A stretch of 64,000 bases of DNA from Bacteroidales bacterium (GCA_038316435.1 JBBQAQ010000001.1:2267-66266), one strand, 5' to 3'; positions 21,608 through 52,470 are shown, numbered from the stretch's first letter. Numbers and translations are program-made. Notes: generated by a model not told the origin, from the sequence alone.

Positions 21608-21618
21608 AAATTTTACAT

Positions 21619-23178: not shown

Positions 23179-23180
23179 AC

Positions 23181-23537: not shown

Positions 23538-23551
23538 AAAAAGTTACTGAA

Positions 23552-23974: not shown

Positions 23975-23978
23975 TCCC

Positions 23979-25355: not shown

Positions 25356-25391
25356 TGTTTTAAAGCAAGCATCCCATTTGTAGGAATAAAG

Positions 25392-25399
25392 TAAATTTG
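25392..25399 (+). promoter_or_regulatory. Candidate -7 promoter box (TAnnTTTG) in the mmdB-citDE gap
   Basis: TAAATTTG lies 16 nt upstream of the ATG at 25415. It suggests citrate lyase may have its own promoter. Confidence 0.3.
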
Positions 25400-25414
25400 T
25401 GAAAAAAGAAATTA

Positions 25415-34798: not shown

Positions 34799-36412
34799 TT
34801 ATAGACTACTATTACAGGGTATGGAAAAAATAAAATTACTACCTTCTCCGGGTTTGCTTTCCACATGAATTTCCCCTTTGTGCTTCTCTATAAAATCTTT
34901 ACAAATGATTAATCCTAAACCGGTACCCGTTTCATTTGCAGTGCCTGTTCTGGAATGAGTTTCTGCAACATTAAAAAGTTTGTTTGCAAATTCAGTATCC
35001 ATCCCAATACCATTATCGGAAACCGATATTTTTATTGAGTCAATTGTTTTTACAGCTTTAACATCAATACAACCATCTGTATTAGTGAATTTTATTGCAT
35101 TTGAAACAAGATTTCGCAAAATAGTTTTTAGCATATCAGGATCGGCAAATACAATAATATCACTACTACCTGAATAATTTAAAGAAATCCTTTTTGAAAA
35201 AGCATTTTGACTGTGAATTTCGAAAATATTCATACATAGTGACTTCAAATTAAGTATTTGAGGATCAAAAGGAATTTTACCTGACTGCGACCGTATCCAT
35301 AATAATAAATCCTCAAGCAAATTAAATGTGTTTTGAGCTGCTTTATCCATCAATCCAATAATTCGCTCAGTTTTCTCAATCTCATAAACACGAATATTTG
35401 AATTCAATAAGCCTATAAAACCCAAAATTGAACTAAAAGGACTTTTTAAATCATGTGCGAGAATTGAAATAAATTTATCCTTATCCCCATTTGCCCTTGT
35501 CAGCTCTTCATTTTTATTCTTTATTTCTGCTTCAGCCTGCTTTCGATCGGAAATATCACGAGCAATTCCATAAGCCTCGCCTTTGTTTAAGGGTATTGTA
35601 TTAATTAGGGCTGTGCGAATTGTTCCGTCACTCCTTAGGTATTCAACCTCTCCCATATCAATAACATTGTTCTCATTTACTATTCTTTCCAATCGCTTAA
35701 CAGCACCATGAGGCGCTAGATCCATAGTAATGAGACTCTTTAATTCTTCCAGAGATTTTCCTATGAGAATTTCAGCTGCTTTGTTTGCATCAAGATATTT
35801 ACCAGTTTTAGTATCAACAATAAAAATTGCATCAATAGATCGTTCAAACAACATCCTGTAGCGTTGCTCGCTGATTAATAGTTTCTCTTCAGCAATTTTT
35901 CTTTCAGTGATATCATGGTAATTACCTAAAAGACCTTGAATATCAGGATCATGTAATAAATTAATCCCTGTAAATTCTATCCACTTGTAACTTCCGTCTT
36001 TGCATTTATAGCGACATTGAGTGGAATCTTTTGCTCCCGGATCTGTCATTAAGCATCCCATAAAAGCCTTTGCTGGTTCAACATCATCAGGATGAACGTT
36101 TTTCCAAGTACTCTCACCAATTACTTCTTCTGGATCCCAGCCAAACCATTTTTTAATATTCGGACTTTTATATCGATTAATCCCATCCTTATCAATGATT
36201 ACAATCACATCACCAATGTTAGCAACCATTTTGGCTTGTTTGGCTTCTGACCTGTGAAGAGCTTCTTCAGCCATTTTCTGCTCTGTTACATCTCTTCCTA
36301 TACCGACAATTCCAATAATATTTCCATTCTGATCCTTAAGTGGGAGTTTGGAAGTAAGGAAACATTTTTTGGGCTGATCCTTCTGAAACACAAATTCTTC
36401 GCGATTAATCAA
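34799..36412 (-). CDS. PAS-PAS-PAS-HisKA-HATPase sensor histidine kinase, C-terminal fragment of a frameshifted gene
   Basis: H-box ILAHDLKSPF, N/G boxes (NAIKFT, DNGIGM, GTGLGL) and repeated DITERK/DVTEQK PAS ends. The track start is a TTG inside a PAS domain, and the frame stays open upstream to 36532. Confidence 0.8.
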   Translation of the reverse strand: MINREEFVFQKDQPKKCFLTSKLPLKDQNGNIIGIVGIGRDVTEQKMAEEALHRSEAKQAKMVANIGDVIVIIDKDGINRYKSPNIKKWFGWDPEEVIGESTWKNVHPDDVEPAKAFMGCLMTDPGAKDSTQCRYKCKDGSYKWIEFTGINLLHDPDIQGLLGNYHDITERKIAEEKLLISEQRYRMLFERSIDAIFIVDTKTGKYLDANKAAEILIGKSLEELKSLITMDLAPHGAVKRLERIVNENNVIDMGEVEYLRSDGTIRTALINTIPLNKGEAYGIARDISDRKQAEAEIKNKNEELTRANGDKDKFISILAHDLKSPFSSILGFIGLLNSNIRVYEIEKTERIIGLMDKAAQNTFNLLEDLLLWIRSQSGKIPFDPQILNLKSLCMNIFEIHSQNAFSKRISLNYSGSSDIIVFADPDMLKTILRNLVSNAIKFTNTDGCIDVKAVKTIDSIKISVSDNGIGMDTEFANKLFNVAETHSRTGTANETGTGLGLIICKDFIEKHKGEIHVESKPGEGSNFIFSIPCNSSL

Positions 36413-36467
36413 TGGTTTTCCAGTTTGAATAACGTATGAATCGTCGGCAAAGAATTTAGATGCTGTT

Positions 36468-37064
36468 TCATGTTCGTATATGTCGAAATCTGGTAAGCGT
36501 TTCCCCCTTTGAAAAAAGAAGTGTGAAATCCCCTAAAACTTTATTGTCTTTTGAGATTTTAATTATAAATGCTTCACCAAGATTAAAAGTTTTTTCGATT
36601 ATAGAAATTACCTTTTTCGAAATTGTATCGCCTGTAAGTTCATGCAGATTATTAAATCCCGTAATAGTTTGATCTTTAATTTTTTCCGCCCGCAGAAAAT
36701 CATGTTTCCAGTGTTTGTCTATTACATCAAATCCTAGTAAGGACATTCCTTTTTGAACATTCGCATGAATGCCAGCAAGAGCAACAGTTGTGAAGTCAAG
36801 CCCATTGTCGTCAAAAATATTTAAAGTAGCATATTTAGCTCCTGAAATATCAAGTATTATCTGGGCTATCTTTTTATAATCTGGAGTCTCTTCAGAAAAG
36901 TGTATAAAATCTTCTGAAGCATAAATTAGTTTTTCCAGAAAGCTGTTTTCTATTGCTTTCTCCTTAAGGCCCTGTTCCAACTCACCTTTTACACACTCAT
37001 ATTTCTTTTGTAATTCCGATAATTCAAGCGAAAGGTCTTCTCTGGTTTTTTCTAGCTTGTTCAT
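36468..37064 (-). CDS. Coiled-coil + GAF-like sensor domain, N-terminal fragment of the same frameshifted kinase
   Basis: 198 aa. It ends inside an overlap window with the downstream frame. The domain pattern (..ILDISGAKYATLNIFDDNG...LGDFTLLFSKGE) looks GAF-like. Confidence 0.55.
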   Translation of the reverse strand: MNKLEKTREDLSLELSELQKKYECVKGELEQGLKEKAIENSFLEKLIYASEDFIHFSEETPDYKKIAQIILDISGAKYATLNIFDDNGLDFTTVALAGIHANVQKGMSLLGFDVIDKHWKHDFLRAEKIKDQTITGFNNLHELTGDTISKKVISIIEKTFNLGEAFIIKISKDNKVLGDFTLLFSKGETLTRFRHIRT

Positions 37065-37159
37065 CCTGCTGTTTTTATCTTTAATATCGAAGCTATTTTT
37101 TTATATGCGATTCAACTCAAAAAATGAGATAAACCTGCGAAAGAAATTGAGAATTCTCA

Positions 37160-40100
37160 TCAGGATATAAGAAGAATATTTTTTTCTATCATCTTTAATA
37201 GTAAGTCTTCCCGTGCAGGTTTGCTTATATAGTCGTTACATCCTGCTTCAATAGCTTTCTGTTTTTCACCATTTGAAGCATAAGCAGTTTGTGCGATTAT
37301 TTTCAAAGAAGGTTTTATTGGTCTAATTTGCTGTGTTGCTTCATAACCATTAATATCAGGTAGCCTGACATCCATAAGCACTAGGTCAACATCCTGATTA
37401 AGAGCTATTTTTACAGCCTCTTTACCATATTCTGTATGAATAATATTATAACCGGCTGAGGAAAGAATTTCTTTCAAATATTCAGTGTTATACATGTCAT
37501 CTTCCACTAATAAAATTGTTTTTTCGGATGTATTCATAAAATTGTTTTTTTCTGTCTGTACGATTTCTTGATAGGAAGGCATTGAATTTTTGAATGGTAT
37601 GCAGAAGGAAAAAGTACTTCCTATACCGGGCTTGGATTCTAGGATTATTTCTCCACCTAAAAGAGTAATTAATCCTTTTACAATCGAAAGGCCTAATCCA
37701 GTGCCGCTAACAAGTTTGTTAGCTCCTGGGTTAAGTTGGGTAAACCTTTCGAAAATTCTGCTTTGCTGATTCTCGGGAATTCCAATTCCTGTATCTGAAA
37801 CAAAAAAGATTAATTGGTTATTATTGTCTACTCTGCAACCCGCTTCAATTGATCCATTTTCAGTAAATTTAAATGCATTGCCAATTAGGTTTATAAAAAT
37901 TTGTTTGAGTTTTCCTGAATCAGTTACAATTATGTTTTGGTTATCATTGCAATTGGATTGCAGGCTAAAATTTATATGCTCTTTGCCTAAATGTTTCTGA
38001 TGTTCAGTAAAGAAAGAAGTGAGGTCTGAAAACAAACTATTAAGATCGCATTTTTCCAAATTTATTGGTAGTTGACCCGACTCAATTTTAGCAATATCAA
38101 GTATGTCGTTAATAATGTCAAGCAGGTCATTACAACGCTGACTAATGATATCAGAGAATTTTTCGAGCTTAGGTCTATTATCAAAATTATTTTTCAAAAG
38201 CGCAGAAAATCCCATAATAGCATTCATTGGAGTCCTGATTTCGTGGCTCATATTCTGAAGAAATGCTGTTTTCAATCGATCGCTCTCTTCTGCATGTAAT
38301 TTTGCTTTGTGTAATTCGTCATTAGTCTGTATTAGTTCTTCATTAATCTGCTGATATTCTTCATTTTGCGATTCAATTTCATCGGTTTTTTCACGAAGGA
38401 GAATTTCTGCAAGTTTTCGTTTAGAAATGTCAAGTACTGTAAATGTAACTCCCTTGGAATGGTCTGAAGCGTCAATTGGCGTAGAAGCAAGAATTACATC
38501 CATCTTTTCGCCATCTTTTTTGATCCAGATTGTTTCAACAACTCCAGTTCCTTTTTCAGCAATTTGGCGGTATTTCTCTTTTCCGACAAAATCATATTCT
38601 TCCTGACTTGAGTATAGAATTACGGAGGGTTTACCAATGAGTTCATCAGCAGAATACCCTGTTAATTCACATATTTTCGGGTTAACCTCTGTTATAATTC
38701 TTTCCTTAACGACTCCAATTCCTGTAGGAGCAACAAGAAAAATACTTTCAAGCCTCTTTTCGCTTAATCGTAATTTGTTTTCAATTGATTTAAGGTTTGT
38801 AATATCCTGTGAAATGATTTGAATTCCGGAAATTTCCTGGTTCTGATTGAGAATTTTGGAAAATGTACTTAAGAAGTGTTTTTCTCCTCCGGGCAGTTGA
38901 ACACAATCTTCGAATACCAACGACTCTTTAGATAGCACACTCTCTTTAATTCTGTTATGATAAAACTCAGCCTCTGCCTTTGGATATATTGAGTAAATAG
39001 ATTTCCCTGTAAAATCTTCAGGAACTCCATTCATGTGACTGGCAGCAAGTTTGTTATATGAGATAACTGTTCCATCTGGCTTATAGTAACCTATTCCTAT
39101 ACCAGTATTTTCATGTAAATGCCTGTACTTCTCTTCACTTTCAATAAGTTTTTTTTCTGCAGTTTTTCTTTTTGTAATTTCAAGGAAAGCAGCAACAAAA
39201 TGATCCGGTTTATATTGGTACCCAACGCAATCATACCATCTATTATTCGCTTCAAGAAACTGTTCAAATCGAATTGTTTCCCCAGTTTTTGCAACCTTTC
39301 CAAATGTTCCTATCCAATCGAAAGCATCCTTTTCAATGCCGGGAAATGCTTCAGTTGCCATTTTTCCCCGGGGATCAACACCTGTCAATTCGATATAACT
39401 TTCGTTTGCATCTAGAAATAGGTAGTCTACCGGATTGTTGTTATCATCGTAAATCATTTGATGATAAGCAACACCTATCGGTCCTTTTTCAAATAATGCA
39501 CGGAACTTCCATTCTGCTTCTTTTCTTGCTTCTGAAGCTCTGGCCAAAACCAGATTTGAATGACTTAATGAAGAGATCATATTTGCAAGCTTTGTATAGA
39601 AGACAAGTGCTTTCTCGATTGCTTCTCTGCTCCAGACAGGAACTTTCCTGATAGCTTTCATATATTCCGTCACATCGAATCCGTACTTTGCAGCCTGATC
39701 AATAAAAACCTGATCATCAGGGATTGCATCTTCAAAGAAAAATTGTCCAGTAAAAAGATTTCCAACATGCTTTTCTCCAACTATAAGAGGTGTTACATTA
39801 TCCCATAAGTTGTTTTTACAGAGGTAGGATTTAAATGTTCCTGACTTTACATCTTTTGATAATTCGGTATCACATTCGAAACATTTCTTTCTAGTTTCGA
39901 GATGGACGCGATGAAATTTTAAACAGACATCCTGCCAACCTGTATTGACAAGCAGGTTATTATTTAGATCAATAATTGCTACAGGGATATTTGTAAGTGC
40001 ATAAATATCATCCATCATAGATTGAATGGCTTCAATATCAATGATATCAGCAAGTTCAAGATCTCCGATTGGATTTTCTCCAGATAAAATACTGTTTAGT

Positions 40101-40633
40101 TTTTTACGATTCTGGGATTCACTTTCCACTAATGCCATTTCAGCATATTTAAGTTTAGTAATATCAGCTGCAAGGGTAAGATTAAGAATTACTTTTCCAG
40201 TTTCATCTTTCACGGGATTGGCAGTAGCTAAAAAATACAGTTTTTTGTTGGGGAGGGGAACCTCTACTTCGATTGATTCACTTTCTCCAGTTTGAAACAC
40301 TCTGTTTGTAGTTTCAAATCTAATATCAGCTTGTTCTTTATCATAAATATCCCAAAATGTTTTACCAATAAAGTAATCGGGTGTTTGGCCAAAAGTAGAT
40401 GCAAAAAGTTGATTAGTAAATTGATATTCACCTTTTTCATCTACGCAGAAAATTGCATCACTTGAGCATTCGATGAGAGAGCGGTATTTTAATTCACTCG
40501 CTTTTAGCTTTTGCTCGGTATCGGCTAAGAATTTACGGTCTTCCATAGAAGAAGATTTTAATGAACGGTTTTCTTCAAGTAACTCTGTTACTTTGCTTAG
40601 CAGTTCATCTTTAGATTTACTTTGCATACACAT
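37160..40633 (-). CDS. Hybrid sensor histidine kinase: PAS-PocR-PAS(x3-4)-HisKA-HATPase-REC
   Basis: A PocR-like Cys-containing block at about aa 195-350 (VCLKFH..KKCFECD..YLCKNNLWD..VGNLFTGQFF..AAKYGFDVTEYMKAIRKVPV), H-box MSHEIRTPMN, GTGLGLSIV and a receiver DLVLMDVRLPD. Confidence 0.85.
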   Translation of the reverse strand: MCMQSKSKDELLSKVTELLEENRSLKSSSMEDRKFLADTEQKLKASELKYRSLIECSSDAIFCVDEKGEYQFTNQLFASTFGQTPDYFIGKTFWDIYDKEQADIRFETTNRVFQTGESESIEVEVPLPNKKLYFLATANPVKDETGKVILNLTLAADITKLKYAEMALVESESQNRKKLNSILSGENPIGDLELADIIDIEAIQSMMDDIYALTNIPVAIIDLNNNLLVNTGWQDVCLKFHRVHLETRKKCFECDTELSKDVKSGTFKSYLCKNNLWDNVTPLIVGEKHVGNLFTGQFFFEDAIPDDQVFIDQAAKYGFDVTEYMKAIRKVPVWSREAIEKALVFYTKLANMISSLSHSNLVLARASEARKEAEWKFRALFEKGPIGVAYHQMIYDDNNNPVDYLFLDANESYIELTGVDPRGKMATEAFPGIEKDAFDWIGTFGKVAKTGETIRFEQFLEANNRWYDCVGYQYKPDHFVAAFLEITKRKTAEKKLIESEEKYRHLHENTGIGIGYYKPDGTVISYNKLAASHMNGVPEDFTGKSIYSIYPKAEAEFYHNRIKESVLSKESLVFEDCVQLPGGEKHFLSTFSKILNQNQEISGIQIISQDITNLKSIENKLRLSEKRLESIFLVAPTGIGVVKERIITEVNPKICELTGYSADELIGKPSVILYSSQEEYDFVGKEKYRQIAEKGTGVVETIWIKKDGEKMDVILASTPIDASDHSKGVTFTVLDISKRKLAEILLREKTDEIESQNEEYQQINEELIQTNDELHKAKLHAEESDRLKTAFLQNMSHEIRTPMNAIMGFSALLKNNFDNRPKLEKFSDIISQRCNDLLDIINDILDIAKIESGQLPINLEKCDLNSLFSDLTSFFTEHQKHLGKEHINFSLQSNCNDNQNIIVTDSGKLKQIFINLIGNAFKFTENGSIEAGCRVDNNNQLIFFVSDTGIGIPENQQSRIFERFTQLNPGANKLVSGTGLGLSIVKGLITLLGGEIILESKPGIGSTFSFCIPFKNSMPSYQEIVQTEKNNFMNTSEKTILLVEDDMYNTEYLKEILSSAGYNIIHTEYGKEAVKIALNQDVDLVLMDVRLPDINGYEATQQIRPIKPSLKIIAQTAYASNGEKQKAIEAGCNDYISKPAREDLLLKMIEKNILLIS

Positions 40634-40662
40634 TGTATAAACTATATTTTAAGCAATATTTT

Positions 40663-42498
40663 TTATATAAATTGAGCTTTGTCTAAATGAGGCAGTTTAA
40701 AACAGAAAATGCTTCCATACCCTTCTTGGCTTTCAACTTTAAGTTCTCCTCCATGCTTTTCAATAAACTCTTTACATAGTAACAACCCTAATCCCGTTCC
40801 GCTTTCATTTTCTGTTCCTTTAGTTGTAAAGCTACCCGAAACATCAAAAAGTTTTTCTTTAGATTTTGCAGATAATCCAATACCATCATCAGAAACTGAA
40901 ATAATCATATGGGTTTCAGTTTCCACAGCATGAATTTCAATATGTCCGTTATTGTGTGTGAATTTTATTGCGTTTGAAATAAGATTTCTTAAAACTGTTT
41001 TCAGCATATCAATATCAGAATAAATAAGAAGCTCTTTATCCGTTGGAAATTTTATATTGATATTTTTGGTTTTAGCATTTAGTTTTAATCCGTCAACAAC
41101 AATCTCGCAGACATCAAAAAGACTTGTTATTTGAGGTTCAAATGGAATTTTTCCGGATTGTGATCGAGCCCATAACAATAAATCTTCAAGCAAGTTATAG
41201 GTACTTTTGGCTGTCTTATTTATTATTCCAGCATATTTTTCAATTTTGTCAATATCGTAATTCCTGATATTAAGGCTTAACAAATCTGAGAACCCAAGCA
41301 AGCCATTAAAAGGACTTTTTAAGTCATGCGCAAGAATTGACATAAACCTGTCTTTATCAGTATTTACACGGATTAATTCTTCATTTTTCAATTTGAGATC
41401 TTGCTCAACTTTCTTTCTTTCAGTAATGTCTATAAGTATCCCATCAGTTGATACCGCTATATCATTTACATATATGTGTATCCAATGATCCTGCAGAAAT
41501 TTAAACGATCCGTCTTTGCACTTCCACCATGCGTCCTGTTTAAAAACTGATTCATTGGAACCCACTAATTCCAAATATGTGAGGTTTGAATCCACTAGTA
41601 CTTCATTGCTTAAAACCTGAGATAAGAAGGAGTTTCTTCCTCCCATTTTGTTAATGTCATAAATTGAATAACCTGTTATTTTCTCAAAGGAAGGGCTGAG
41701 ATATGCAAATTCTTTAGTATTTACATCAACACTATATACTATGTCCTTTATATTCGTTATTAAAAGCCGATACTTTTCTTCACTAATCCTGATTTTTTCA
41801 GACTGGATTTTATTAAAAATGGCTTTTTGCTTGTTTAAAATTGTCACAAAGAGAAAATAAAGTGCAAAAATCATTAAACTTACAGGTAACATACATTCCT
41901 TTATTATCAGGATTATCCAGTGCTTTACTGAGACATCCAGGCCTAATACAGCGATTAATTCTCCATTTATCTGATTTTTAACTGGGATAAAAATGCTCAT
42001 CCAGTTACCCCATTTATCTTTAAGTGGTCCTTCAAAACTTTCATTTCCTGATTTGAATGATGATCTCAATATTGAAGAGGCTTCTGAGTAGATATCACCG
42101 GGTAAAGATTCATCCGGGGATCCTATAGGTTCAGAATCGGCAATAAAATAAATACTAACCAACCTGATCCCTAATAAATAAACAAATCGTGCTTCTGGTA
42201 TGGTTTTAATTACTTGATTTAACTGATGTTTTATCTGTTTGTAATCATTTTTCGTAGTATCTGAAATGTTGTTATTTAATGAAGATATTGATTCCTGACT
42301 TATTATGATTGAAGTAATTCTGGCATGACGAAGTAAATCGTTATAAAGATTGCGTCTTGCTTTAATTGCTGTAATCCATATAAATGAACCTCCAAAAAAT
42401 AATAATACAACCAGATAGTATATCACTTTTCGGTTGATACTCGAGTGCTTTTCGGGTTTTGCTTCAAAAGAATTAATATTTCCTATTTCATCTATCAT
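40663..42498 (-). CDS. Membrane sensor histidine kinase: TM-extracytoplasmic (Cache/PDC-like) domain-TM-PAS-HisKA-HATPase
   Basis: Two TM helices flank an ~150-aa domain (..PGDIYSEAS..DKWGNWMSIFIPV..IAVLGLDV). H-box ILAHDLKSPF and GTGLGL. Confidence 0.85.
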   Translation of the reverse strand: MIDEIGNINSFEAKPEKHSSINRKVIYYLVVLLFFGGSFIWITAIKARRNLYNDLLRHARITSIIISQESISSLNNNISDTTKNDYKQIKHQLNQVIKTIPEARFVYLLGIRLVSIYFIADSEPIGSPDESLPGDIYSEASSILRSSFKSGNESFEGPLKDKWGNWMSIFIPVKNQINGELIAVLGLDVSVKHWIILIIKECMLPVSLMIFALYFLFVTILNKQKAIFNKIQSEKIRISEEKYRLLITNIKDIVYSVDVNTKEFAYLSPSFEKITGYSIYDINKMGGRNSFLSQVLSNEVLVDSNLTYLELVGSNESVFKQDAWWKCKDGSFKFLQDHWIHIYVNDIAVSTDGILIDITERKKVEQDLKLKNEELIRVNTDKDRFMSILAHDLKSPFNGLLGFSDLLSLNIRNYDIDKIEKYAGIINKTAKSTYNLLEDLLLWARSQSGKIPFEPQITSLFDVCEIVVDGLKLNAKTKNINIKFPTDKELLIYSDIDMLKTVLRNLISNAIKFTHNNGHIEIHAVETETHMIISVSDDGIGLSAKSKEKLFDVSGSFTTKGTENESGTGLGLLLCKEFIEKHGGELKVESQEGYGSIFCFKLPHLDKAQFI

Positions 42499-42580
42499 AT
42501 CAGAAAACTTACTTTTTAATTTTTTTATATCCTTTTAGCTTGTTTAATATATTTATCTTTAACTATTGAAATAGTAAAAA

Positions 42581-45436
42581 TTATGTATTAAGTTGATTGT
42601 TGATCATATTCAATAGCATACTTTCTTTTATTGGCTTAGCTATATAATCATTGCATCCGGCTTCAAGAGCCTTAAGCTTTTCACTATTAGATGCATAAGC
42701 GGTTTGCGCAATGATCTTAAGAGAAGGTTTTTTAGACCTGATCATCACCGTTGCTTCATACCCGTTGATGTCAGGAATTCTGACATCCATGAGTACAATA
42801 TCAATCTCCTGTGATAGTGCTATTTGAACAGCTTCTTTCCCATACATAGTATGAATAATTTTATAACCGGCAGATTTTAGGATTTCCTCGAGGTAAGCAG
42901 TATTGAATGGATCATCTTCTACAAGAAGTATTGTTCTTTCAGAAGGAATCTTTTCATAAAAAGGCTCTGCTGGCAGCCCTTTAGACTGATTTATTTTCGA
43001 ATTATCGGATGTAATTGTAAAGGAAAAAGTGCTTCCTTCACCAGGTTGGGATTTTAGATTTATTTCTCCGCCTAATAGGTTAATTAACCCCTTTACGATT
43101 GACAATCCCAATCCGGTTCCGCTTACCAGCTTGTTCACACCGGGATTTAACTGCGTAAATCTTTCGAAAATATTATCATGCTTATTAGGAGGAATACCAA
43201 TTCCGGTATCTGAAACAAAAAAGATAATTTTGTTATTTTCGTCAAACCTGCATCCAGCTTCAATTGTACCTGTTTCAGTAAATTTAAATGCGTTGACAAT
43301 CAGGTTTATGAAGATCTGTTTGAGCTTTCCTGTGTCAGTTACAATTACCTTCCGAATATCTCCACAATCATTTTTTAAACTAAAGGCAATATGTTCTTTT
43401 TCTATGTGCTTTTGATGCTCAGTAAAGAATGATGCTAGCTCCAAAAACATTTTTTCCAGATCGCATTCTTCCATATTTACAGTAAGTTGACCGGACTCAA
43501 TTTTGGCGATATCCAGGATATCATTAATAATATCCAATAAGTCGTTGCAGCGTTGATTTATAATCTCAGAAAATTTTTCAAGTTTAGGTTTATTATCGAA
43601 ATTGTTTTTCAAAAGCGCAGAAAACCCCATAATTGCATTCATAGGAGTTCTAATTTCATGGCTCATATTTTGCAAAAACGCAGTTTTCAGACGATCGCTT
43701 TCCTCTGCATGCTCCTTTGCGAGGGTTAATTCTTTATTTATTTGAAGCAATTCTTCATTTAGTTGCAGATACTCTTCATTTTGACTTTCAATTTGTTCGG
43801 TTTTATCGATTAGGAGTTGTTCATATTTTTTCTGTTCAGAAATATCATGAACAACGCCAAAAACGATATTGCTACTTTTATCAAACGTTGCAATTGAATG
43901 AATATAAGTAATTTCACCGTCGTTAACTCTTTGAATTTTAAACTCTACATTGTAAGATGTACCTTTTGTAATTAAGTTAATGAGAGCTGTATTTAAAGTT
44001 TCCCTGTACTCAAGAAGTGGAATATTCTGAACAATTTCAAGGTTAAACTGGTTTTCCTCAATACCATAAATATCAATTGCACCATGTGATGCGATTATTT
44101 GCCTGGAGTCTAATAAAAGCTTCCAGTTTCCTATTTTCGCAATTTTTTCGGCACGTGATAATCGCTCTTCACTTTCAATTAAGGCTTTTTCCGATTCAGT
44201 TCTAAGCTGATTAGCTATTTGTGCTTCGTAGTTTTTTCTCTTTAAATAAAAGAAATACAAAATAACGGTAATTGACAACAGAATTAAAATGAAGATAACT
44301 ATCTGCGCAATTATTAGTGAATTCTTCTTTTCAATAGTTAAATGTTGTATTTGAATTTGTTTGTCTCGTAACTCAACTTCCTGCTTTTTTTCAATATTGG
44401 CAATTTCAACTTTAGTGTCATTTGAGAAAATTGAATCCATATTGTCGGAATACTCTTTATAATATTTAAGAGCATTTTTTGTGTCGTCTAATCTTTCATA
44501 AACTTGCGACAGACTTTGTGATGTCTCAGAAATTAAAGCTAAATCATCTATTTTCTCTAAATAGAAAAGACCATTTATTAAGTATTTTTTGGCAAGAAGT
44601 AAATTACTTCGAAAATCGGTTGAATAATAGGGGCAAGACCTACTGTTTTTTAATGTATCACATGCAATTTTGTAATAAATAGCACCAATATAACTGCAGT
44701 AGGTTGCAATATCGTAGGTTATATTGTTTTCAATGCTGATATCTAATGCTTTGATAGCCATTTCGATCGCATCACAATATTCTTTTGTGAATGTTTTATT
44801 ATCTGCAATATTGATAAGTATTTGAGAAGCCAGATCCTCATTTTTTATTTCTTGGGATAATTCTAAAGCTTCGAAATAATAACTATTCGACTCATTAAAC
44901 TCCAATTTTTCAGCATAAATATTTCCAATATTAATATAATTTTTAACAAGTTCATATTTATTTCCAATTCCTGAATTGATTGATATTGATATGTTTATAT
45001 ATTCAATTGCCTTTGAGTATTCTTTATGAATACGGTAAAAATTCGCTAGATTATTATTCAGAAATGCAATTCCCTGCTGGTCATCTGCTTCATTATATTT
45101 CACCAAGGATTTATTAAAATAATCCAGAGCTTGTGGGAAATTACCTTTAACTGCAAAATTTGTACCCAGGTAATTATAAGAAAAAGCAATACCTGTAGTC
45201 CATTTTAATTTTTCAGAAAGACTTAGAGCCTTCTGTCCATAATAAACTCCTGAGTCTGTATCAAATCTATAATACAAAAAAGATAGTTTTCCCAGAATTC
45301 TTGCCTGACTCGTATCTTCCTTTGCATTGGATAATTGCAATTTTAAGGAATCGATTAATTCAATTCCCTGTATCTGCGAAAAAGTGTTTTCAATTAGAAA
45401 AACAAAAGCAATTAGTATTATTATCCGTTTGAACAT
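42581..45436 (-). CDS. Hybrid sensor histidine kinase: signal peptide-TPR repeats-TM-PAS-HisKA-HATPase-REC
   Basis: About 380 aa of TPR-like repeats after a signal peptide, a TM helix (IVIFILILLSITVILYFFYL), H-box MSHEIRTPMN and a receiver DIVLMDVRIPD. Confidence 0.85.
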   Translation of the reverse strand: MFKRIIILIAFVFLIENTFSQIQGIELIDSLKLQLSNAKEDTSQARILGKLSFLYYRFDTDSGVYYGQKALSLSEKLKWTTGIAFSYNYLGTNFAVKGNFPQALDYFNKSLVKYNEADDQQGIAFLNNNLANFYRIHKEYSKAIEYINISISINSGIGNKYELVKNYINIGNIYAEKLEFNESNSYYFEALELSQEIKNEDLASQILINIADNKTFTKEYCDAIEMAIKALDISIENNITYDIATYCSYIGAIYYKIACDTLKNSRSCPYYSTDFRSNLLLAKKYLINGLFYLEKIDDLALISETSQSLSQVYERLDDTKNALKYYKEYSDNMDSIFSNDTKVEIANIEKKQEVELRDKQIQIQHLTIEKKNSLIIAQIVIFILILLSITVILYFFYLKRKNYEAQIANQLRTESEKALIESEERLSRAEKIAKIGNWKLLLDSRQIIASHGAIDIYGIEENQFNLEIVQNIPLLEYRETLNTALINLITKGTSYNVEFKIQRVNDGEITYIHSIATFDKSSNIVFGVVHDISEQKKYEQLLIDKTEQIESQNEEYLQLNEELLQINKELTLAKEHAEESDRLKTAFLQNMSHEIRTPMNAIMGFSALLKNNFDNKPKLEKFSEIINQRCNDLLDIINDILDIAKIESGQLTVNMEECDLEKMFLELASFFTEHQKHIEKEHIAFSLKNDCGDIRKVIVTDTGKLKQIFINLIVNAFKFTETGTIEAGCRFDENNKIIFFVSDTGIGIPPNKHDNIFERFTQLNPGVNKLVSGTGLGLSIVKGLINLLGGEINLKSQPGEGSTFSFTITSDNSKINQSKGLPAEPFYEKIPSERTILLVEDDPFNTAYLEEILKSAGYKIIHTMYGKEAVQIALSQEIDIVLMDVRIPDINGYEATVMIRSKKPSLKIIAQTAYASNSEKLKALEAGCNDYIAKPIKESMLLNMINNQLNT

Positions 45437-45440
45437 TATC

Positions 45441-47456
45441 TTATTTTTCGAAATATTTTTTTAATAATCCCTTCAAAACATCCTGTTTTAAAGGTTTTGA
45501 TATGTAGTCATTGCATCCTGATGTCAATGCTTTATCAATATCCCCTGAAAGAGCAAATGCAGTTTGAGCAATAATAATCAGTTCCTTATTGAACTTGCGG
45601 ATTTCTTTTGTAGCCTCGTAGCCTCCCATGTCGGGCATTTTTATATCCATGAGAACCAGATCAATATCTGTGTTCTTTTGACAAGTACTTACTGCTTCAA
45701 TTCCAGTTTTAGCATAAAGAATTTCTTTAGCATAAACATCAATTAATTCAGCAAGAAGCATTGATGATGTTTCATCGTCCTCAGCAATAAGGACTTTTAG
45801 CTTCTTTATTGGATCATGATCATTATCATTCATTTTGGAATAATTTTTATGAATAGTAGTTTTGTCGTCTAAATTGCTTGGTAAGGTAAAATAGAATGTA
45901 GAACCTTTCCCAGGTTCACTTTTTACCCAAATTTTTCCTCCAAGCATTTCTATATAAGCTTTAGAAATGGCAAGACCCAGACCAGCTCCCTGAAATGCCC
46001 TTTTATCGGAAATATCAGCCTGGATAAACCTTTCAAAAATTGCTTGTTGCCTGTCAATTGGAATGCCGATACCTGTGTCGTGAACGAAAAATTCCAATGT
46101 ACTTCCCTTTTGTTTATACCCAAATTCAATAGAACCTTTGTCACAATATTTAATACTATTTTTAACTATATTAATAAGGATTGCATAGATCTTTTCCCTA
46201 TCAGTTCTAATAATCGCATTTTGAGAACTGAGATCATTATGGAAGCGAAGCTCCATTCCTTTATTCTCGATTTCAGGTTTAAAAAAAGTATATATAAATT
46301 CGATGAGTTTATTGATATTTGTTTCTGAAATTGTTGTTTTCATCAAACCTGACTCAATTTTAGAAATATCAATAATATCGTTAATAATATTGAGCATCCT
46401 TGAACCGCTCTTCTCAATAATACCTAAATACAGCTGCTGCTTATCATCGGTCAAGTCAGGCTTTTTCAGAAGTTCAGCAAACCCAAGGATTCCATTCATC
46501 GGAGTACGGATTTCATGGCTCATATTTGCGAGAAATGCAGTTTTTAAGCGATCACTTTCCTCAGCATGTTCTTTTTCCTTTTTTAATTCCGCGTTTGTTT
46601 TAATTAGTTCCTCATTGAGTTGCTGCGATTCTAAACTTTTTTTATGCAATAATATTTCGGCTTCTTTACGTTCGGTAATATCCCTGACAGTAGTAATGGC
46701 TCCAACAATATTCCCGAATGAATCATACACAGGTGCAGTAGTATTGGACGACCAACCTGTTTTACCTGTTTGAAGAGTATAGGGTATATCAATTTCTGTG
46801 GATAATATTCCATCAAGGGCTTTACTAACAATATCATAAACTCCAAAATCTTTAAGGAATGGGAAATAAACAGTTGGATCTTTTCCGATAATGTCTGATG
46901 CGGAGATTCCTGATAATCCCTCCATATAAGGATTCCATACCTGATATTTCATTTCACGATCATAAACAATAATTCCCTCCTGAGCACTTTGAATGATTTG
47001 TTTGTTAAACTGGTTTGATTCAATAAGTGCCTGCTCAACAAGCCTTAGTTTACTCTCATTTTCAATTTCCTTGCTAACCCTTGCAATTATAAGAGGTATC
47101 ATTTCAAGAAAGTGGATATCTTTTATGACATAATCCTTTGCGCCAAGTTTCATCATGTCAACTGCGATTCTCTCGTCACCCTGGCCTGTTGATACTATAA
47201 ATGGAGCTAGATTTAGCCCAATAGTAGTTACTTCATCGATAAACTCTTTCCCGTTCATATCGGGTAAGCTAAAATCGAGGATAATAAGGAAAGGAGAATG
47301 AAATTTTAACCACTCAATTGCATTCCTGCCATTTTTAAAATGGATAGTTTGATGACCGCTTTCAATGATTCTTTCTGTTAGTAACTCAATTAACCCTTCA
47401 TCATCCTCAATTAAGAGAATTGTTTTAATGTTTGCCTTCATTTTTTGTTTTTTCAT
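45441..47456 (-). CDS. Hybrid sensor histidine kinase: REC-PAS-HisKA-HATPase-REC
   Basis: N-terminal receiver (ILLIEDDEG..LIILDFSLPD), H-box MSHEIRTPMN, GAGLGLAIS and a C-terminal receiver (DLVLMDIKMPD). I prefer the ATG at 47456 to the TTG at 47495. Confidence 0.85.
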   Translation of the reverse strand: MKKQKMKANIKTILLIEDDEGLIELLTERIIESGHQTIHFKNGRNAIEWLKFHSPFLIILDFSLPDMNGKEFIDEVTTIGLNLAPFIVSTGQGDERIAVDMMKLGAKDYVIKDIHFLEMIPLIIARVSKEIENESKLRLVEQALIESNQFNKQIIQSAQEGIIVYDREMKYQVWNPYMEGLSGISASDIIGKDPTVYFPFLKDFGVYDIVSKALDGILSTEIDIPYTLQTGKTGWSSNTTAPVYDSFGNIVGAITTVRDITERKEAEILLHKKSLESQQLNEELIKTNAELKKEKEHAEESDRLKTAFLANMSHEIRTPMNGILGFAELLKKPDLTDDKQQLYLGIIEKSGSRMLNIINDIIDISKIESGLMKTTISETNINKLIEFIYTFFKPEIENKGMELRFHNDLSSQNAIIRTDREKIYAILINIVKNSIKYCDKGSIEFGYKQKGSTLEFFVHDTGIGIPIDRQQAIFERFIQADISDKRAFQGAGLGLAISKAYIEMLGGKIWVKSEPGKGSTFYFTLPSNLDDKTTIHKNYSKMNDNDHDPIKKLKVLIAEDDETSSMLLAELIDVYAKEILYAKTGIEAVSTCQKNTDIDLVLMDIKMPDMGGYEATKEIRKFNKELIIIAQTAFALSGDIDKALTSGCNDYISKPLKQDVLKGLLKKYFEK

Positions 47457-47463
47457 TTTCCAA

Positions 47464-47922
47464 CTAAACCTTAACAATCTGAATAAATAAACCAAGCCTT
47501 TTCAAGGTTTCAGTAAATTTCTTAAAATCTACAGGTTTGGTGATGTACATATTACATCCAATTTTGTAACAAGCTTCGACTTCCCTTGGATCGTCGGTGG
47601 TTGTAAGCATCATAACGGGAATCTCCTTTAATTCGTCGTTTGATTTCATTCGTTTTAAAACTTCAATACCGTCTAATTTTGGCATATTTATATCAAGGAG
47701 CAAGAGGTAACCTTTAGTTTTATCACGAACCTCCGTGTTACCGTTTCCTGACAGAAAATTCCATATCTCCTCGCCGTTTGAAAAACGAATGAATCTATTG
47801 CAAACTCCTGATTCTTCTAGTCCTTCTCTTATTAGGTCTGCATGCCCATCATCATCTTCAGCAATCAGAATTATCATTTCTTTGTAATTTTTCATAGTAC
47901 TTAATTTATTATAAATTTTCAT
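47464..47922 (-). CDS. Stand-alone receiver (CheY/Rcp1-like response regulator without an output domain)
   Basis: ILIAEDDDGHADLI..LLLLDINMPKLDG..IPVMMLTTTDD..YITKP. At 152 aa there is no room for an effector domain. Confidence 0.85.
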   Translation of the reverse strand: MKIYNKLSTMKNYKEMIILIAEDDDGHADLIREGLEESGVCNRFIRFSNGEEIWNFLSGNGNTEVRDKTKGYLLLLDINMPKLDGIEVLKRMKSNDELKEIPVMMLTTTDDPREVEACYKIGCNMYITKPVDFKKFTETLKRLGLFIQIVKV

Positions 47923-47925
47923 TGT

Positions 47926-50436
47926 TTATTCAGAAAAAGGTCTTTTTTGTAATTCAATATAAAAGATGCTTCCTGTTTCTTCAACGGATTCAGCCCATAT
48001 CTTGCCTTTGTGTTTTTCTGTTATTCGTTTCGCCAGACTTAGCCCAATTCCTTCTCCGGCTATAGGTGAGCCAGAATCTACTCTGTAGAATATATCCCAG
48101 ATCCTTTCGAGATGCCTTTGAGCTATACCAATACCAGTATCCTGAATTGAGTAAACAACCTTGTTGAATTGAACAGCGCACCCAATTTTAATCACCATCT
48201 TCCTTTTTTTATCCCTGTATTTAAGAGCATTTCCGATAATATTGGAAAATAACTGATTTAATTGATTTTCATCACCATAACAGTCCGAAAGATTTTCGAC
48301 CTGAACTTCACCAGATATTTCAGCAATTTGAAAATTTAGTGCTGAAATAATGGTTTTAATCAATTGGTTCATGTTAATCTGTGCAATGCTCACTTTTATT
48401 CTCCCAGTGCGCGATATTTGCAATAAGCCATTAATAAGAGAATCCATTTTTGTAACGTTGGAATATATGAAACTTAAGGTTTTTGGAATATCCTCTTTAG
48501 TGATTTTGTTTAATACCAATTGGGTTTCATTATCCAGATTCGCATCTGCTACAAAGGTGTTTATAGCATTTGCTTGTTTTTGAAGTCGCTGACTAAAACC
48601 TTGAATATTTACAAGTGGGGATCTTAAATCATGGGATGCAACATATAAATAGTTTTCAAGTTCCTTATTTTTTGTTGTTATAACTTCCTGTATTTGTTGG
48701 ATAGCAGATATATCGGTAGTAATAGTTGCAAAATGATTCTTTTTTGGGGAAACTACAGAAATCATAAAATGCTTATCCATCGGCTCAAAATAGGTATTGT
48801 ATTCAAATGATTTACCTGTGATTGCTACATTTGAAAATTCCTTTAAATAGGGGGGTGTTTGAGTTCCGTAAACTTCTGTTGCTAGTTTTCCGATTGCATT
48901 TTCTTTATTAATACCTGTTATTGAAGTAAAAGCATTATTGCAATCAGTAATTCTATAATTTATCACTTCACCAGTCTCACCGAAAACAAGTTCATGCAAT
49001 GCAACCATCTCAGTCATAGAAATAAACAACGTACTTAATTTTTCTTCATTTTCTCTTAGGGCTTCTTCAACTTGCTTTCGTTCAGTAATATCTTTTATAA
49101 TACCATCATACGAAACAAGCTTTCCATTAGGGTTATATTTGGGTATTGCCTGATCGCTTATCCATCGGATTTTACCATCCTTGTGTATAATCCTGTGTTC
49201 AAAAGCAGGTAAATCATTGCCTTCAAGGATTTGAAGAAACCGACCCGCTACACTTACCCTTTCTTCAGGTACCACCATGTTTATCCATAAATAAGGGTCA
49301 GATATTAGCTCCTCAGAAGTATATCCTGTTACTGTTAAACATGCCTCACTATGGTGTGTTTCAATTGCTTTTCCATTTCTCACTTCCACGGTATACAGGT
49401 AATCGGTGATGCCTGCAGTAATTCTTTTATACCGTTCTTCGCTTTCCAATAGTTTAAGCTCTGCTTTTTTGCGCTCGGTTATATCAACAACAAAGCCTTC
49501 GAAGTATTTTACCTTACCGGTTTCATCTTTTATTGCCTGTGCATCTTCATAAAACCAAAGCCTTTTGCCATTTTTATCTTTTACTTCATATTCATATCCT
49601 TTAACAAATCCCTGATCTTCCATCAATTTCAGAAAAACATCTCTTTCCTTAGGATCCATATAGGCATCTTTTGAAATATCAGTCCTGCTGCTAATCAACT
49701 CTTCAGGACTTGCAAAGCCGTACATTTTTGCTAATGCAGGATTTACTGAAACATAAGACCCATCAACAGTTGTCTGGAAAATTCCTTCCTGTGCATTTTC
49801 AAAAATGTTCCGGAACTTTTTTTCATTTTCCTGAAGTGCAGATTCTGCTTGATTTCTTTCTTCTATTTGTTGCTTTAAAAGTAAGTTTCTATATGCTTTT
49901 TCTGATAATTCACCAGCAAAGGCATAAAGCATTTTGGAAACTTTATTAAACTGTTCCTCAGACATTACCGGAACTTCTTTTAGAGCTTTTAAAAAATCAT
50001 TCTGATTTGCGCCAATTTCACTTGCGTATTGCAACATCTTTTTTTCATTAATTTCCTCATTCCTGACCTGACCTATAAGCCAATTAGCTATATGAATACC
50101 TCCAACAGAAATGCTTGCTCCTGCATCCCATAATCCTCCACTTAAACAGGGCTGTACCACAGGACCAGTAGAATTATTTTGGCCAAGTACTGAATCAGAT
50201 TTTTGACAGTTTGCAAGACCTTTTGCGGTTTTTCGGATAATATCACTACAAAGGGTACAAAAGTTACTTGGCTTAGTAATTGGTTTTCCATCGGGAAATG
50301 TAATAATGGAAGCAACACCACAGGAATCAGAAAAAAGATCCTGTAGGTTTTGAATTTCTTCAAGTTTAAAGAGATCAATAAATTGAACCGATTTCGATTT
50401 GGAATTAGATTTCCCTTTATTTTGCTTTAGCTTCAT
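47926..50436 (-). CDS. Sensor histidine kinase: PocR-PAS(x3-4)-HisKA-HATPase
   Basis: N-terminal PocR block (GVASIITFPDGKPITKPSNFCTLCSDIIRKTAKGLANCQKSD..QPCLSGGLWDAGASISVGG..ALKEVPVMSEEQF), H-box VASHDLRSPL and GEGIGLSLA. Confidence 0.85.
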   Translation of the reverse strand: MKLKQNKGKSNSKSKSVQFIDLFKLEEIQNLQDLFSDSCGVASIITFPDGKPITKPSNFCTLCSDIIRKTAKGLANCQKSDSVLGQNNSTGPVVQPCLSGGLWDAGASISVGGIHIANWLIGQVRNEEINEKKMLQYASEIGANQNDFLKALKEVPVMSEEQFNKVSKMLYAFAGELSEKAYRNLLLKQQIEERNQAESALQENEKKFRNIFENAQEGIFQTTVDGSYVSVNPALAKMYGFASPEELISSRTDISKDAYMDPKERDVFLKLMEDQGFVKGYEYEVKDKNGKRLWFYEDAQAIKDETGKVKYFEGFVVDITERKKAELKLLESEERYKRITAGITDYLYTVEVRNGKAIETHHSEACLTVTGYTSEELISDPYLWINMVVPEERVSVAGRFLQILEGNDLPAFEHRIIHKDGKIRWISDQAIPKYNPNGKLVSYDGIIKDITERKQVEEALRENEEKLSTLFISMTEMVALHELVFGETGEVINYRITDCNNAFTSITGINKENAIGKLATEVYGTQTPPYLKEFSNVAITGKSFEYNTYFEPMDKHFMISVVSPKKNHFATITTDISAIQQIQEVITTKNKELENYLYVASHDLRSPLVNIQGFSQRLQKQANAINTFVADANLDNETQLVLNKITKEDIPKTLSFIYSNVTKMDSLINGLLQISRTGRIKVSIAQINMNQLIKTIISALNFQIAEISGEVQVENLSDCYGDENQLNQLFSNIIGNALKYRDKKRKMVIKIGCAVQFNKVVYSIQDTGIGIAQRHLERIWDIFYRVDSGSPIAGEGIGLSLAKRITEKHKGKIWAESVEETGSIFYIELQKRPFSE

Positions 50437-50443
50437 AGTTATC

Positions 50444-50806
50444 TTAGTTAAAATACTTCTTCATCAGTTCAATCAATGAAGATTGATTGATTGGTTTAGA
50501 TATGTAATCGGTACAGCCTGCTGCAATTGCTTTTTCACGCTCGCCTGATAGAGCAAATGCTGTTTGAGCTATGATTACCACATCTTTATTAAATTGCCTG
50601 ATATTTCTAGTTGCATCATATCCATTCATTTTTGGCATTTGAACGTCCATTAAAACCAAATCAAAATCAGGATTACTTCGACATGCTTCAACTGCCTCTA
50701 TTCCAGTAATTGCATATTTGAATTCCTTCCCATACATTTCAATCAATTCTGTAAGGAGCATTCCTGAGGTTTCATCGTCTTCGGCTATCAAAATTTTCAG
50801 TTTCAT
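50444..50806 (-). CDS. Stand-alone receiver domain protein
   Basis: 120 aa, ILIAEDDETSGMLL..DLVLMDVQMPKMNG..IIAQTAFALSGE..YISKP. It is a close paralog of the C-terminal REC of 45441..47456. Confidence 0.85.
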   Translation of the reverse strand: MKLKILIAEDDETSGMLLTELIEMYGKEFKYAITGIEAVEACRSNPDFDLVLMDVQMPKMNGYDATRNIRQFNKDVVIIAQTAFALSGEREKAIAAGCTDYISKPINQSSLIELMKKYFN

Positions 50807-50857
50807 AATTCTTATTTTAATAAATTTTCAGAAATTTCATTTAATTGAATTCAGCAT

Positions 50858-50865
50858 CAAAATTA
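50858..50865 (-). promoter_or_regulatory. Candidate -7 promoter box (TAnnTTTG on the minus strand) for the signalling island
   Basis: Plus-strand CAAAATTA equals minus-strand TAATTTTG, 52 nt upstream of the ATG at 50806. Confidence 0.3.
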
Positions 50866-51197: not shown

Positions 51198-51467
51198 CTA
51201 ATACTTTAATAAACTTACGGAACCATCTGTTGCATTTATAGATATCAATTTCCCAGTTTCTTCTGTGCCATTGGTTTCACGTATATATTTCTCATTACCA
51301 TCTGTATTATTTTCAAGAATTTTAAATTCCGCAATGTTTATTTCTCCATTTTCGGAATTGCCAGTTTGATCAAAGGAAGTTTCCTTATTTATTCCAATTT
51401 TATAATTGCCTCTGGTATTTTCAATCTTTATACTTTCGAAAGAAGGGATGATGCTTTTCCTCATCAT
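51198..51467 (-). CDS. Hypothetical small protein (89 aa, Asn/Glu/Thr-rich)
   Basis: An ORF with an ATG start that is followed by a good terminator. I recognise no motif. Confidence 0.4.
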   Translation of the reverse strand: MMRKSIIPSFESIKIENTRGNYKIGINKETSFDQTGNSENGEINIAEFKILENNTDGNEKYIRETNGTEETGKLISINATDGSVSLLKY

Positions 51468-51573: not shown

Positions 51574-52470
51574 TTAAGATTCCTCCTCTTTAGTATTCGA
51601 ACCTAAACCAAATTCAGGTTTGATAATCTTATAACAAACCAAAATAGATGATAAATAAATCATTCCGGTTTTAATAGTTCCTGAATCATAATTTAGCTCT
51701 GAACCTCTTGCACTGTGAGGAATATATGAAATAACCAGAACTACAAGGGCTGCAAGGATCACAAGATATTTTCTTTCTTTCTTTAGGTTTCCTAACCATG
51801 CAATCACCCAAGCTAAAAAGCCAATTAAAGCTTTATTATCAGTTAAATCTTTTCCATAAGGAAACCCTGTCCAGTATTCATTAAATGCAAATTTCTGAAC
51901 AATAGGGCCAAAAATCATTCCTCCCAGTAAAAACATTAAAAGTGTCAATCCTGTATAGAATCGGTAGGATGGAATTTTTCCTAAAGCAAAGAATGCTGAA
52001 AGAGTTGACAGCAACATAGCAGCAAAAATAAACAGGATATGGGGTATAAGTACAATCGCAGGAACATTATCCTTAAACCTAATTTTTATAACTTCATTAT
52101 TAGCAATTTCAAGAAATTTACCATCACGATATAATTCCACTTTATATTCAAGCTTACCAGCTGCTTTTTGTTTTGGCAACCAGGCAATTAGAGTTTCGGC
52201 TTCGCGATTAAAACTAAGTGTATCCCATGAATCACTTGTCGGGAATCGACGGTAAATTATTTTGCCGGTAATAAGCGGATCTGCCAAAGCAATTTTAACC
52301 TTACAATCTGAGTATCCGTTCTGGCTCCGAGGAAGTGAGTACTTATATTCAGTACTGTCAATCATAACCTTAAACCTTTTAGGATACGTCGGCCCGGTTG
52401 TTCTTTGGTAATAAGCAGTGAATAAGGTTATTACTACTGTTAAAATCCAGAAAATCACTTTCTTTGTCAT
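51574..52470 (-). CDS. Hypothetical membrane protein (N-terminal anchor + beta-rich domain + ~5 TM helices)
   Basis: Hydrophobicity pattern only. Confidence 0.5.
   Translation of the reverse strand: MTKKVIFWILTVVITLFTAYYQRTTGPTYPKRFKVMIDSTEYKYSLPRSQNGYSDCKVKIALADPLITGKIIYRRFPTSDSWDTLSFNREAETLIAWLPKQKAAGKLEYKVELYRDGKFLEIANNEVIKIRFKDNVPAIVLIPHILFIFAAMLLSTLSAFFALGKIPSYRFYTGLTLLMFLLGGMIFGPIVQKFAFNEYWTGFPYGKDLTDNKALIGFLAWVIAWLGNLKKERKYLVILAALVVLVISYIPHSARGSELNYDSGTIKTGMIYLSSILVCYKIIKPEFGLGSNTKEEES

Follow-up and report, generated by a model that had tools for sequence, protein, structure and literature searches.

In Rhodopseudomonas palustris, the single-domain receiver Rpa3017 (LhfD) is cognate to two bacteriophytochromes (BphP2/BphP3) and has been proposed to be a phosphate sink; the kinase LhfE/Rpa3018, which carries a receiver (REC) domain, acts downstream of the first kinases, and the signal is passed on through LhfE and LhfA, a REC-HTH protein (PMC6879726). 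In the Lvr system of Leptospira, LvrA's phosphorylation of LvrB at its N-terminal Rec domain switches on LvrB autophosphorylation, and Rec-controlled kinases are an established class (PMC13269768). The single-domain receiver MrrA is a hub for at least six kinases (MrrA-PhyK-LovK, PMC5964349), and in the CheA3-CheS3-CheY3 system the kinase CheS3 is activated via its receiver (PMC3868531). Here we compare these systems with a genuine and compact gene cluster, six genes for sensor kinases and two for small receivers, that occupies positions 34799-50806, minus strand, of a 64-kb stretch of DNA (hereafter, the window) from a bacterium that is uncultured and probably belongs to the Bacteroidota. We consider it fairly probable that this island is a lineage-specific, strain-variable tandem array, built by duplication and sensor shuffling around a conserved two-tier cassette, with an output that would lie elsewhere.

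ORF and frame analysis of the island gave nine open reading frames (ORFs), in all of which domains were called with Pfam at E<=0.01. An earlier reading of this DNA (the original prediction) had described eight minus-strand genes separated by 3-95 nt; the coordinates, the strand and the gaps (7, 3, 7, 4, 82, 29 and 95 nt in order from g1 to g8a) were correct, and the count was not, the eighth gene being split.

50444-50806, minus strand: g1, 120 aa, stand-alone REC (Pfam Response_reg, 7.7e-24)
47926-50436, minus strand: g2, 836 aa, cytoplasmic PocR-PAS x3-HisKA-HATPase kinase (Pfam PocR, 1e-48, and HATPase_c)
47464-47922, minus strand: g3, 152 aa, REC only (Pfam)
45441-47456, minus strand: g4, 671 aa, REC-PAS-HisKA-HATPase-REC (Pfam)
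42581-45436, minus strand: g5, 951 aa, hybrid kinase, signal/transmembrane (TM) segment-TPR-TM-PAS-HisKA-HATPase-REC (Pfam TPR_12, HisKA, HATPase_c and REC)
40663-42498, minus strand: g6, 611 aa, TM-PDC/Cache-like periplasmic domain-TM-weak PAS-HisKA-HATPase, no REC
37160-40633, minus strand: g7, 1157 aa, hybrid kinase, PAS-PocR-PAS x3-HisKA-HATPase-REC (Pfam)
36468-37064, minus strand: g8a, 198 aa, 5' fragment with a coiled coil and a divergent GAF-fold domain
34799-36412, minus strand: g8b, 537 aa from TTG, 3' fragment, half PAS-PAS-PAS-HisKA-HATPase (Pfam)

Pfam agreed with the architectures originally predicted for g1 to g7, and the GAF and Cache-like domains, which have no Pfam match, are backed by fold models. 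The start of g4 is the ATG at 47456, and 671 aa are also called in the related contigs L088 and L089; the open frame reaches TTG 47495, and numbered from that codon the domains are REC (22-145), PAS, HisKA (318-383), HATPase (432-540) and a C-terminal REC. Catalytic residues are intact in all six transmitters (H, N, G1 and G2 boxes) and in all six RECs (DD/D/T/K, with acidic pair, phospho-Asp, Thr/Ser and Lys). None of the island proteins reached an equivalog cut-off in NCBIfam.

The conserved triad g2-g3-g4

The original prediction recognized no described system in this gene order, which is too strong, because the g2-g3-g4 core matches the two-tier cascades of Lhf (PMC6879726) and Lvr (PMC13269768). 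As in Lhf, one or more sensor kinases are followed by a single receiver of the Rcp1 family and then by a kinase with an N-terminal receiver. The island differs from Lhf in that the sensor of g2 is PocR-PAS rather than a phytochrome, g4 adds a PAS domain and a C-terminal receiver, no LhfA-like REC-HTH protein was found in the island or in the ~84 kb formed by the window and 10 kb past each end, and the island has four additional kinases and another free receiver. As in Lvr, g4 has a Rec domain at its start and a kinase gene before it; however, LvrB is a bare Rec-DHp-CA protein, whereas g4 has a PAS domain between Rec and DHp as well as a C-terminal Rec, and nothing in the island corresponds to LvrC, the Rec-bearing anti-sigma factor that is the output of Lvr. 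The architecture of g4 is that of a Rec-controlled kinase, with an N-terminal REC ahead of DHp-CA, to which the PAS domain and the C-terminal REC are additions.

The ten best PDB matches of g3 are headed by 3heb, 5ic5 and 5brj, which are annotated only as CheY-like or response regulator, and ranks 4-10 are RcpB (1k66), Rcp1 (1i3c/1jlk), RcpA (1k68) and Rpa3017 (4zyl), with E from 1e-21 to 4e-15; by these matches, g3 is a member of the Rcp1/RcpA/RcpB/Rpa3017 family of single-domain receivers. Like Rcp1-type receivers, it is REC-only, at 152 aa, and lies directly downstream of a kinase gene, 3 nt after g2, its presumed kinase, which recalls the pairs Cph1-Rcp1, CphA-RcpA and CphB-RcpB. Unlike the kinases of those pairs, g2 has PocR and PAS and no GAF-PHY by Pfam; it lacks the PAS-GAF-PHY photosensory module of a phytochrome partner, and its transmitter is not specifically phytochrome-like. 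The idea that g2 is a phytochrome-type kinase was dropped, because its transmitter matches generic kinases first, as well as or better than phytochromes.

A triad of a sensor histidine kinase (HK), an Rcp1-like single REC and a REC-first gene recurs across phyla, and g2-g3-g4 has this order. Full-length homologs of g2 (45-54% identity) retain the same downstream neighbours, the shared single receiver being ~145 aa in the next relatives. The 80 PocR-kinase loci taken from GTDB genomes include triads in Zixibacteria, Desulfobacterium, Ignavibacteriales, Fimbriimonadaceae, Cloacimonadota and Bacteroidales, and the operon mostly stops after the triad. Metagenome contigs were then scanned by a g3-like REC profile only, and the neighbours at the resulting 80 loci were scored with our own REC and HK profiles. 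An HK gene lies directly upstream of the g3-like REC at 46 of 53 evaluable loci and a REC-first gene directly downstream at 41 of 46, and the full triad is present at 29 of the 38 loci evaluable on both sides. The 41 downstream genes comprise 13 REC-HK, 11 REC-HK-REC and 17 REC-other; by Pfam, the 'other' genes and the fourth genes are REC-PAS-GGDEF proteins, REC-HisKA_3 kinases and REC-GerE (LuxR-type) regulators. The REC-GerE type accounts for 20 of 61 REC-X genes in the relatives and is common as the fourth gene; such an Lhf-like terminal regulator is often present in relatives of the triad.

In locus L005, identities are 66% for the tier-1 transmitter, 82% for the single REC and 64% for the N-terminal REC of the third gene; in L095 they are 52, 64 and 42%, and the third gene's own transmitter and C-terminal REC drift across triads. 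Joint conservation of the tier-1 transmitter and both receivers is the pattern expected if the first kinase addresses both. Compared separately, the receiver at L005:12516-12965 is 82-84% identical to g3, the partner kinases sharing 45% overall; the PocR and transmitter parts of these two kinases are 66-67% identical, and their PAS regions diverge. Judged by this pair, the single receiver is constrained much more tightly than the sensors.

Duplication, array variability and a broken gene

The transmitters had been described as closely related paralogs, which is right only in part: g5 and g7 are 79% identical and g6 and g8 54% (measured on g8b), and the g2 transmitter shares only 25-34% with all others; the g4 transmitter is 46-47% identical to those of g5 and g7. 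By these identities, the island transmitters form three classes, not one close family. Among the receivers, the C-terminal domains of g5 and g7 are 74% identical and g1 and the C-terminal domain of g4 are 66% identical, and g3 shares 26-31% with every other receiver. Paralogy is also visible in the DNA, where 37226-38392 (g7) matches 42641-43807 (g5) at 72.7% over 1174 nt, 34853-35515 (g8b) matches 40726-41388 (g6) at 66.5% over 677 nt, and 45493-45810 (g4) matches 50493-50810 (g1) at 70% over 320 nt; the offsets of the three segment pairs are 5.0-5.9 kb. On the simplest reading, a pair of one hybrid and one non-hybrid kinase would have been duplicated long ago and its sensor domains then exchanged, and the C-terminal receiver of g4 would have been copied out. 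In at least nine further loci from Bacteroidales, a non-hybrid kinase of the g6 type adjoins a PocR hybrid kinase.

The best NCBIfam matches of g1 are the receivers of BarA, HrmK, LuxQ, RcsC and ArcB, and its best PDB matches are REC domains of hybrid kinases; g1 and the C-terminal receivers of g4, g5 and g7 score best against the BarA, ArcB, TorS, LuxQ and RcsC receivers. Such hybrid-kinase receivers are an intermediary class that normally passes phosphate to a histidine phosphotransfer (HPt) domain (PMC9981736). From these matches, g1 looks like a hybrid-kinase-type receiver, a paralog or detached copy of the C-terminal REC of g4. The possibility that g1 is the tail of a decayed hybrid kinase was rejected, as no kinase remnant was found in the 767-bp spacer upstream of it. 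Since the g3 family sits between two kinases and g1 copies a hybrid receiver, both look like sinks or shuttles rather than endpoints. The original prediction had taken these two REC-only proteins for the visible endpoints of the system, a view not favoured by the context of g3, with an HK upstream and a REC-first gene downstream, and by the 66% identity of g1 to the g4 receiver.

The order g1-g7 is kept in L088, a contig that ends in g8, and the order g1-g8 in L089, with proteins at least 90% identical; the eight-gene order is conserved only within the species. A scan of genome contigs with g5 alone found no relative, and the species has no close GTDB representative; synteny was therefore tested via g2 and g3 profiles. 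Conservation of the eight-gene block did not extend to the next relatives, which carry different kinase arrays: the P0003 contig (g2 54% identical) reads HK-REC-(REC-HK-REC)-HK-HK-(PocR-HK)-REC-(REC-HK-REC), and L005-L007 (g2 45% identical) carry other kinases and (PocR-HK)-REC-(REC-HK). Uninterrupted runs of at least three kinase genes (3-6) occur in 10 of the 53 PocR-kinase loci of at least 15 kb, one of which, L009, has a six-kinase run as in the island. The island is the upper end of a recurring array habit in these genomes and is not unique.

Within the species, the array itself varies at g8, where g8a and g8b are in different frames and g8b begins mid-PAS.

36490-36491, minus strand: deletion junction, 956 bp lost relative to L089:14144-15099 (blastn)

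Contig L089 (ENA ERZ27246993, 138 kb) is 99.7-99.9% identical to the window in DNA over 22.5 kb and encodes an intact g8 of 1073 aa, composed of a coiled coil, GAF, five PAS domains and an HK. The 956-bp deletion is clean and frameshifting, removes ~319 codons (~three PAS domains) and has no obvious flanking repeat. An identical junction is present in the independently assembled contig L003, indicating that it is a real allele and not an artefact of the window; the frameshift means that, in this strain, one kinase of the six is either inactivated or truncated. The GAF-PAS-HK polypeptide originally predicted as the eighth gene is thus not encoded here, where ORFs of 198 and 537 aa take its place, and is intact in L089. 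Its GAF fold is supported by the AlphaFold2 (AF2) model of g8a (predicted local distance difference test score, pLDDT, 77), for which Foldseek matched the GAF domains of phytochromes and NreA at E of about 1e-6. No Pfam or PDB sequence match was found for g8a, and a search of 5.8 billion clustered proteins yielded only ten homologs; in relatives, the g8a-type domain is fused to PAS domains. The near-identical strains with and without an intact g8 form a natural pair for comparison.

Output, wiring and alternative explanations

In agreement with the original prediction, no HPt or output domain was found in the island, the Pfam search of the nine ORFs revealing no Hpt (PF01627), HTH, GGDEF, EAL or CheB/R domain. 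In every kinase the HATPase or REC domain is followed by a few residues at most, which leaves no room for a cryptic C-terminal module; the claim that every polypeptide ends in this way is true of the kinases and not of g8a, which ends after its GAF domain. Profiles made from the window's own domains found no further REC, transmitter or PocR in the 64 kb, and Pfam found no REC, kinase or Hpt among the other window ORFs or the genes called in the 10 kb past each end. With no other REC or HK ORF in ~84 kb, the clustering is not due to chance. The final output, whether an HPt protein, a response regulator with an effector or some protein target, would lie outside the island and its ~84-kb surroundings. 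Of the components of a classical phosphorelay, hybrid kinases with an intermediary-type receiver are present (g4, g5 and g7), and an HPt and an effector regulator were not found within ~84 kb. The hybrid two-component systems (HTCS) of Bacteroidetes, probably the same phylum, likewise combine a periplasmic sensor, an HK and a REC in one polypeptide; unlike HTCS (HK-REC-HTH_AraC), the nine ORFs contain no HTH_AraC or DNA-binding domain.

The block is co-oriented and probably co-transcribed, and its 3-7 nt gaps point to co-transcription and possibly to translational coupling. One candidate promoter was located.

50858-50865, minus strand: candidate promoter motif, Bacteroidetes-type -7 TAnnTTTG, 59 nt before the g1 ATG (regex scan)

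No other such motif occurs in the gaps, whether upstream or internal, and the island showed no intergenic terminators. A sigma-70 scan gave 66 sites against 76 in shuffles and is uninformative for a likely Bacteroidota genome. As regards the proposal of one co-transcribed device, co-transcription is made probable by the gaps of 3-95 nt and the lack of a terminator, and a single conserved device is not, given an order kept only within the species.

On the basis of the observed architecture, catalytic residues, paralogy, deletion, triad conservation and lack of a local output, we infer every phosphotransfer step of the following scheme. Module 1, g2-g3-g4, would be the two-tier cassette, in which g2 senses via PocR/PAS, autophosphorylates and passes phosphate to g3, acting as a sink, buffer or shuttle, and also to the N-terminal receiver of g4. 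Once phosphorylated, that receiver would switch on the g4 kinase, as in LvrB, LhfE and CheS3, and g4 would phosphorylate its own C-terminal receiver and probably also g1. Module 2 would be the duplicated pair, g5-g6 and g7-g8, in which a BarA-type hybrid stands beside a FimS-type non-hybrid kinase with the sensors swapped (TPR, Cache-like, PocR/PAS and GAF/PAS). With DHp and REC domains nearly alike, g5 and g7 should have one partner in common; g6 and g8, which have no receiver of their own, may use neighbouring receivers.

All eight genes could instead form a single integrated, many-input phosphorelay, whose outputs are the two REC-only proteins, acting through contacts or as sinks, and which needs no HPt. 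Gaps of 3-95 nt with one candidate promoter and no internal terminators, wholly intact catalytic residues, the lack of any other two-component gene within ~84 kb and the order kept in L088 (g1-g7) and L089 (g1-g8) are in keeping with this, as is the near-identity of the DHp and REC domains of g5 and g7, which suggests one shared partner; MrrA, serving at least six kinases, is a precedent (PMC5964349). Like the multikinase networks (GacS/RetS/LadS, MrrA and CheA3-CheS3-CheY3), where single receivers act as shuttles or sinks and phosphate passes between kinases, the island has many inputs that may converge on few receivers. Those networks, however, were defined biochemically or genetically and their genes are mostly dispersed, whereas interaction in the island is suggested by clustering and paralogy only. 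We regard a single device as unlikely, since composition varies beyond the species, g8 is dispensable in this strain, the g3 family usually sits between two kinases and has been described in Lhf as a phosphate sink, g1 copies a receiver that works within a hybrid kinase, and relatives of the triad often end in REC-LuxR, implying that the pathway normally has a conventional output. Little credence can likewise be given to the opposite extreme, that these are independent orphan kinases which became adjacent by tandem duplication, each with an unlinked partner and without collective function. Paralogy at both the amino acid and nucleotide levels, array content that differs between relatives, the deletion of one member with the others kept and sensors of unrelated types would all suit such kinases, but the triad g2-g3-g4 is conserved across phyla and its interface domains are conserved jointly, the pairing of hybrid and non-hybrid kinases recurs in other metagenome-assembled genomes (MAGs), and the 3-7 nt gaps imply co-transcription.

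A further alternative, which we treat as possible without thinking it likely, is that the island is only the input layer of classical multistep relays, with the three hybrid kinases and g1 feeding an unlinked HPt and effector regulator. The receivers of g1, g4, g5 and g7 (the last three C-terminal) are of the BarA/ArcB/TorS/LuxQ type, normally HPt donors (PMC9981736), and no HPt lies within ~84 kb; linkage gives this explanation no support, however, because no family annotated as HPt was recurrent among 114 small ORFs near the relatives' hybrid-kinase loci (25 families listed). Very doubtful, in our judgement, is a more general idea, that the order HK, Rcp1-like REC and REC-HK-REC, without effector or HPt in at least six phyla, is a self-contained HPt-less class whose receivers shuttle phosphate as MrrA does. 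If that were true, the DHp domains of the kinases would be the phosphotransferases, output would be protein-protein contact by the receivers, and the Bacteroidota island would be an expanded, six-input version. The tandem array around a conserved two-tier cassette, which we favour, has its own difficulties. Within the species, the close packing of g1-g5 (3-7 nt) and the retained order of g1-g7 (g1-g8 in L089) fit a single device too, and the promoter evidence is one weak motif; the 80 metagenome loci are the best tblastn matches to g3, enriched for closer relatives and not a random sample of Rcp1-like receivers; and the REC and HK profiles, built from window domains, miss other kinase families, HisKA_3 having been detected only via Pfam.

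Many orphan hybrid kinases are found in environmental Bacteroidota and anaerobes, and part of them resolves into a recurrent module of a tier-1 kinase, an Rcp1-like receiver and a Rec-controlled second gene, with an exchangeable effector end (kinase-REC, HisKA_3 kinase plus LuxR regulator, or GGDEF). From the triad follows a wiring hypothesis that can be tested on thousands of kinases lacking annotation; no new signalling principle emerges.

Sensor domains and surroundings

The diversity of sensors noted originally (PocR, GAF, TPR, Cache-like and PAS) was upheld throughout by Pfam or fold search. The TPR part of g5, TPR_12 in Pfam and SusR-type (TPR_SusR) in precomputed annotation, is placed outside the cytoplasm by hydrophobic segments at the N-terminus and at ~residues 375-400. 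In g6, Pfam finds HisKA-HATPase after an N-terminal half without a family, and the transmitter is FimS-like (NCBIfam 3.5e-44, below the cut-off). The Cache-like region of g6 has no Pfam match; in its AF2 model (pLDDT 80), the periplasmic domain was matched by Foldseek to PDC/Cache sensor domains, single or double, from WalK, KinD, Tlp3 and DctB. A CHASE domain in g6, an idea taken from the Pfam label of the homolog P0160, was rejected, because the g6 stretch corresponds to the first periplasmic domain of P0160; the CHASE label probably lies after the second membrane segment of P0160, which g6 lacks.

PocR was first described in the cobalamin/propanediol regulon. Two sets of loci that are unrelated to each other (L005-L007, ~5400-6460, and L068:10190-10870) have proteins with a B12-binding domain next to their PocR-kinase arrays, and a link between these arrays and corrinoid sensing is possible. 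PocR also occurs as a separate protein of ~300-380 aa near a short kinase (L104, L113, L136, L145, L146, L154, L155, L157 and L161). In L104, L145, L146, L154 and L155, the genes that come after the short kinase and PocR encode an Rcp1-like REC, a REC-kinase and one more REC protein (REC-LuxR in those inspected); judged by gene order, this branch would in effect be a split g2 with a conventional output.

The window has a GC content of 35%, and its nearest relatives are Bacteroidales MAGs; these two features, the TPR_SusR and FimS-like matches and the -7 motif are the grounds for a probable assignment to Bacteroidota. Outside the island, Pfam of the window ORFs and of the genes called in the 10 kb past each end showed only genes of metabolism (for citrate lyase, a Na+-pumping decarboxylase, 2-oxoacid dehydrogenase and the biosynthesis of histidine) and of transport (a TetR regulator with ABC-2 efflux). 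In the 767-bp spacer upstream of g1, an 89-aa ORF at 51198-51467 has a weak DUF4097 match, and beyond it 51574-52470 encodes a 298-aa multi-pass membrane protein without a family match; both are called in related contigs. On the other side of the island, adjoining VTC-domain and DUF4956 genes occupy 28229-29651 on the minus strand. At 21104-28184, a Na+-pumping decarboxylase set (carboxyltransferase, OAD gamma, biotin carrier and OAD beta) is followed by citrate lyase genes (an ACP/beta fusion and CitF), a gene content that suggests anaerobic citrate or succinate-propionate metabolism.

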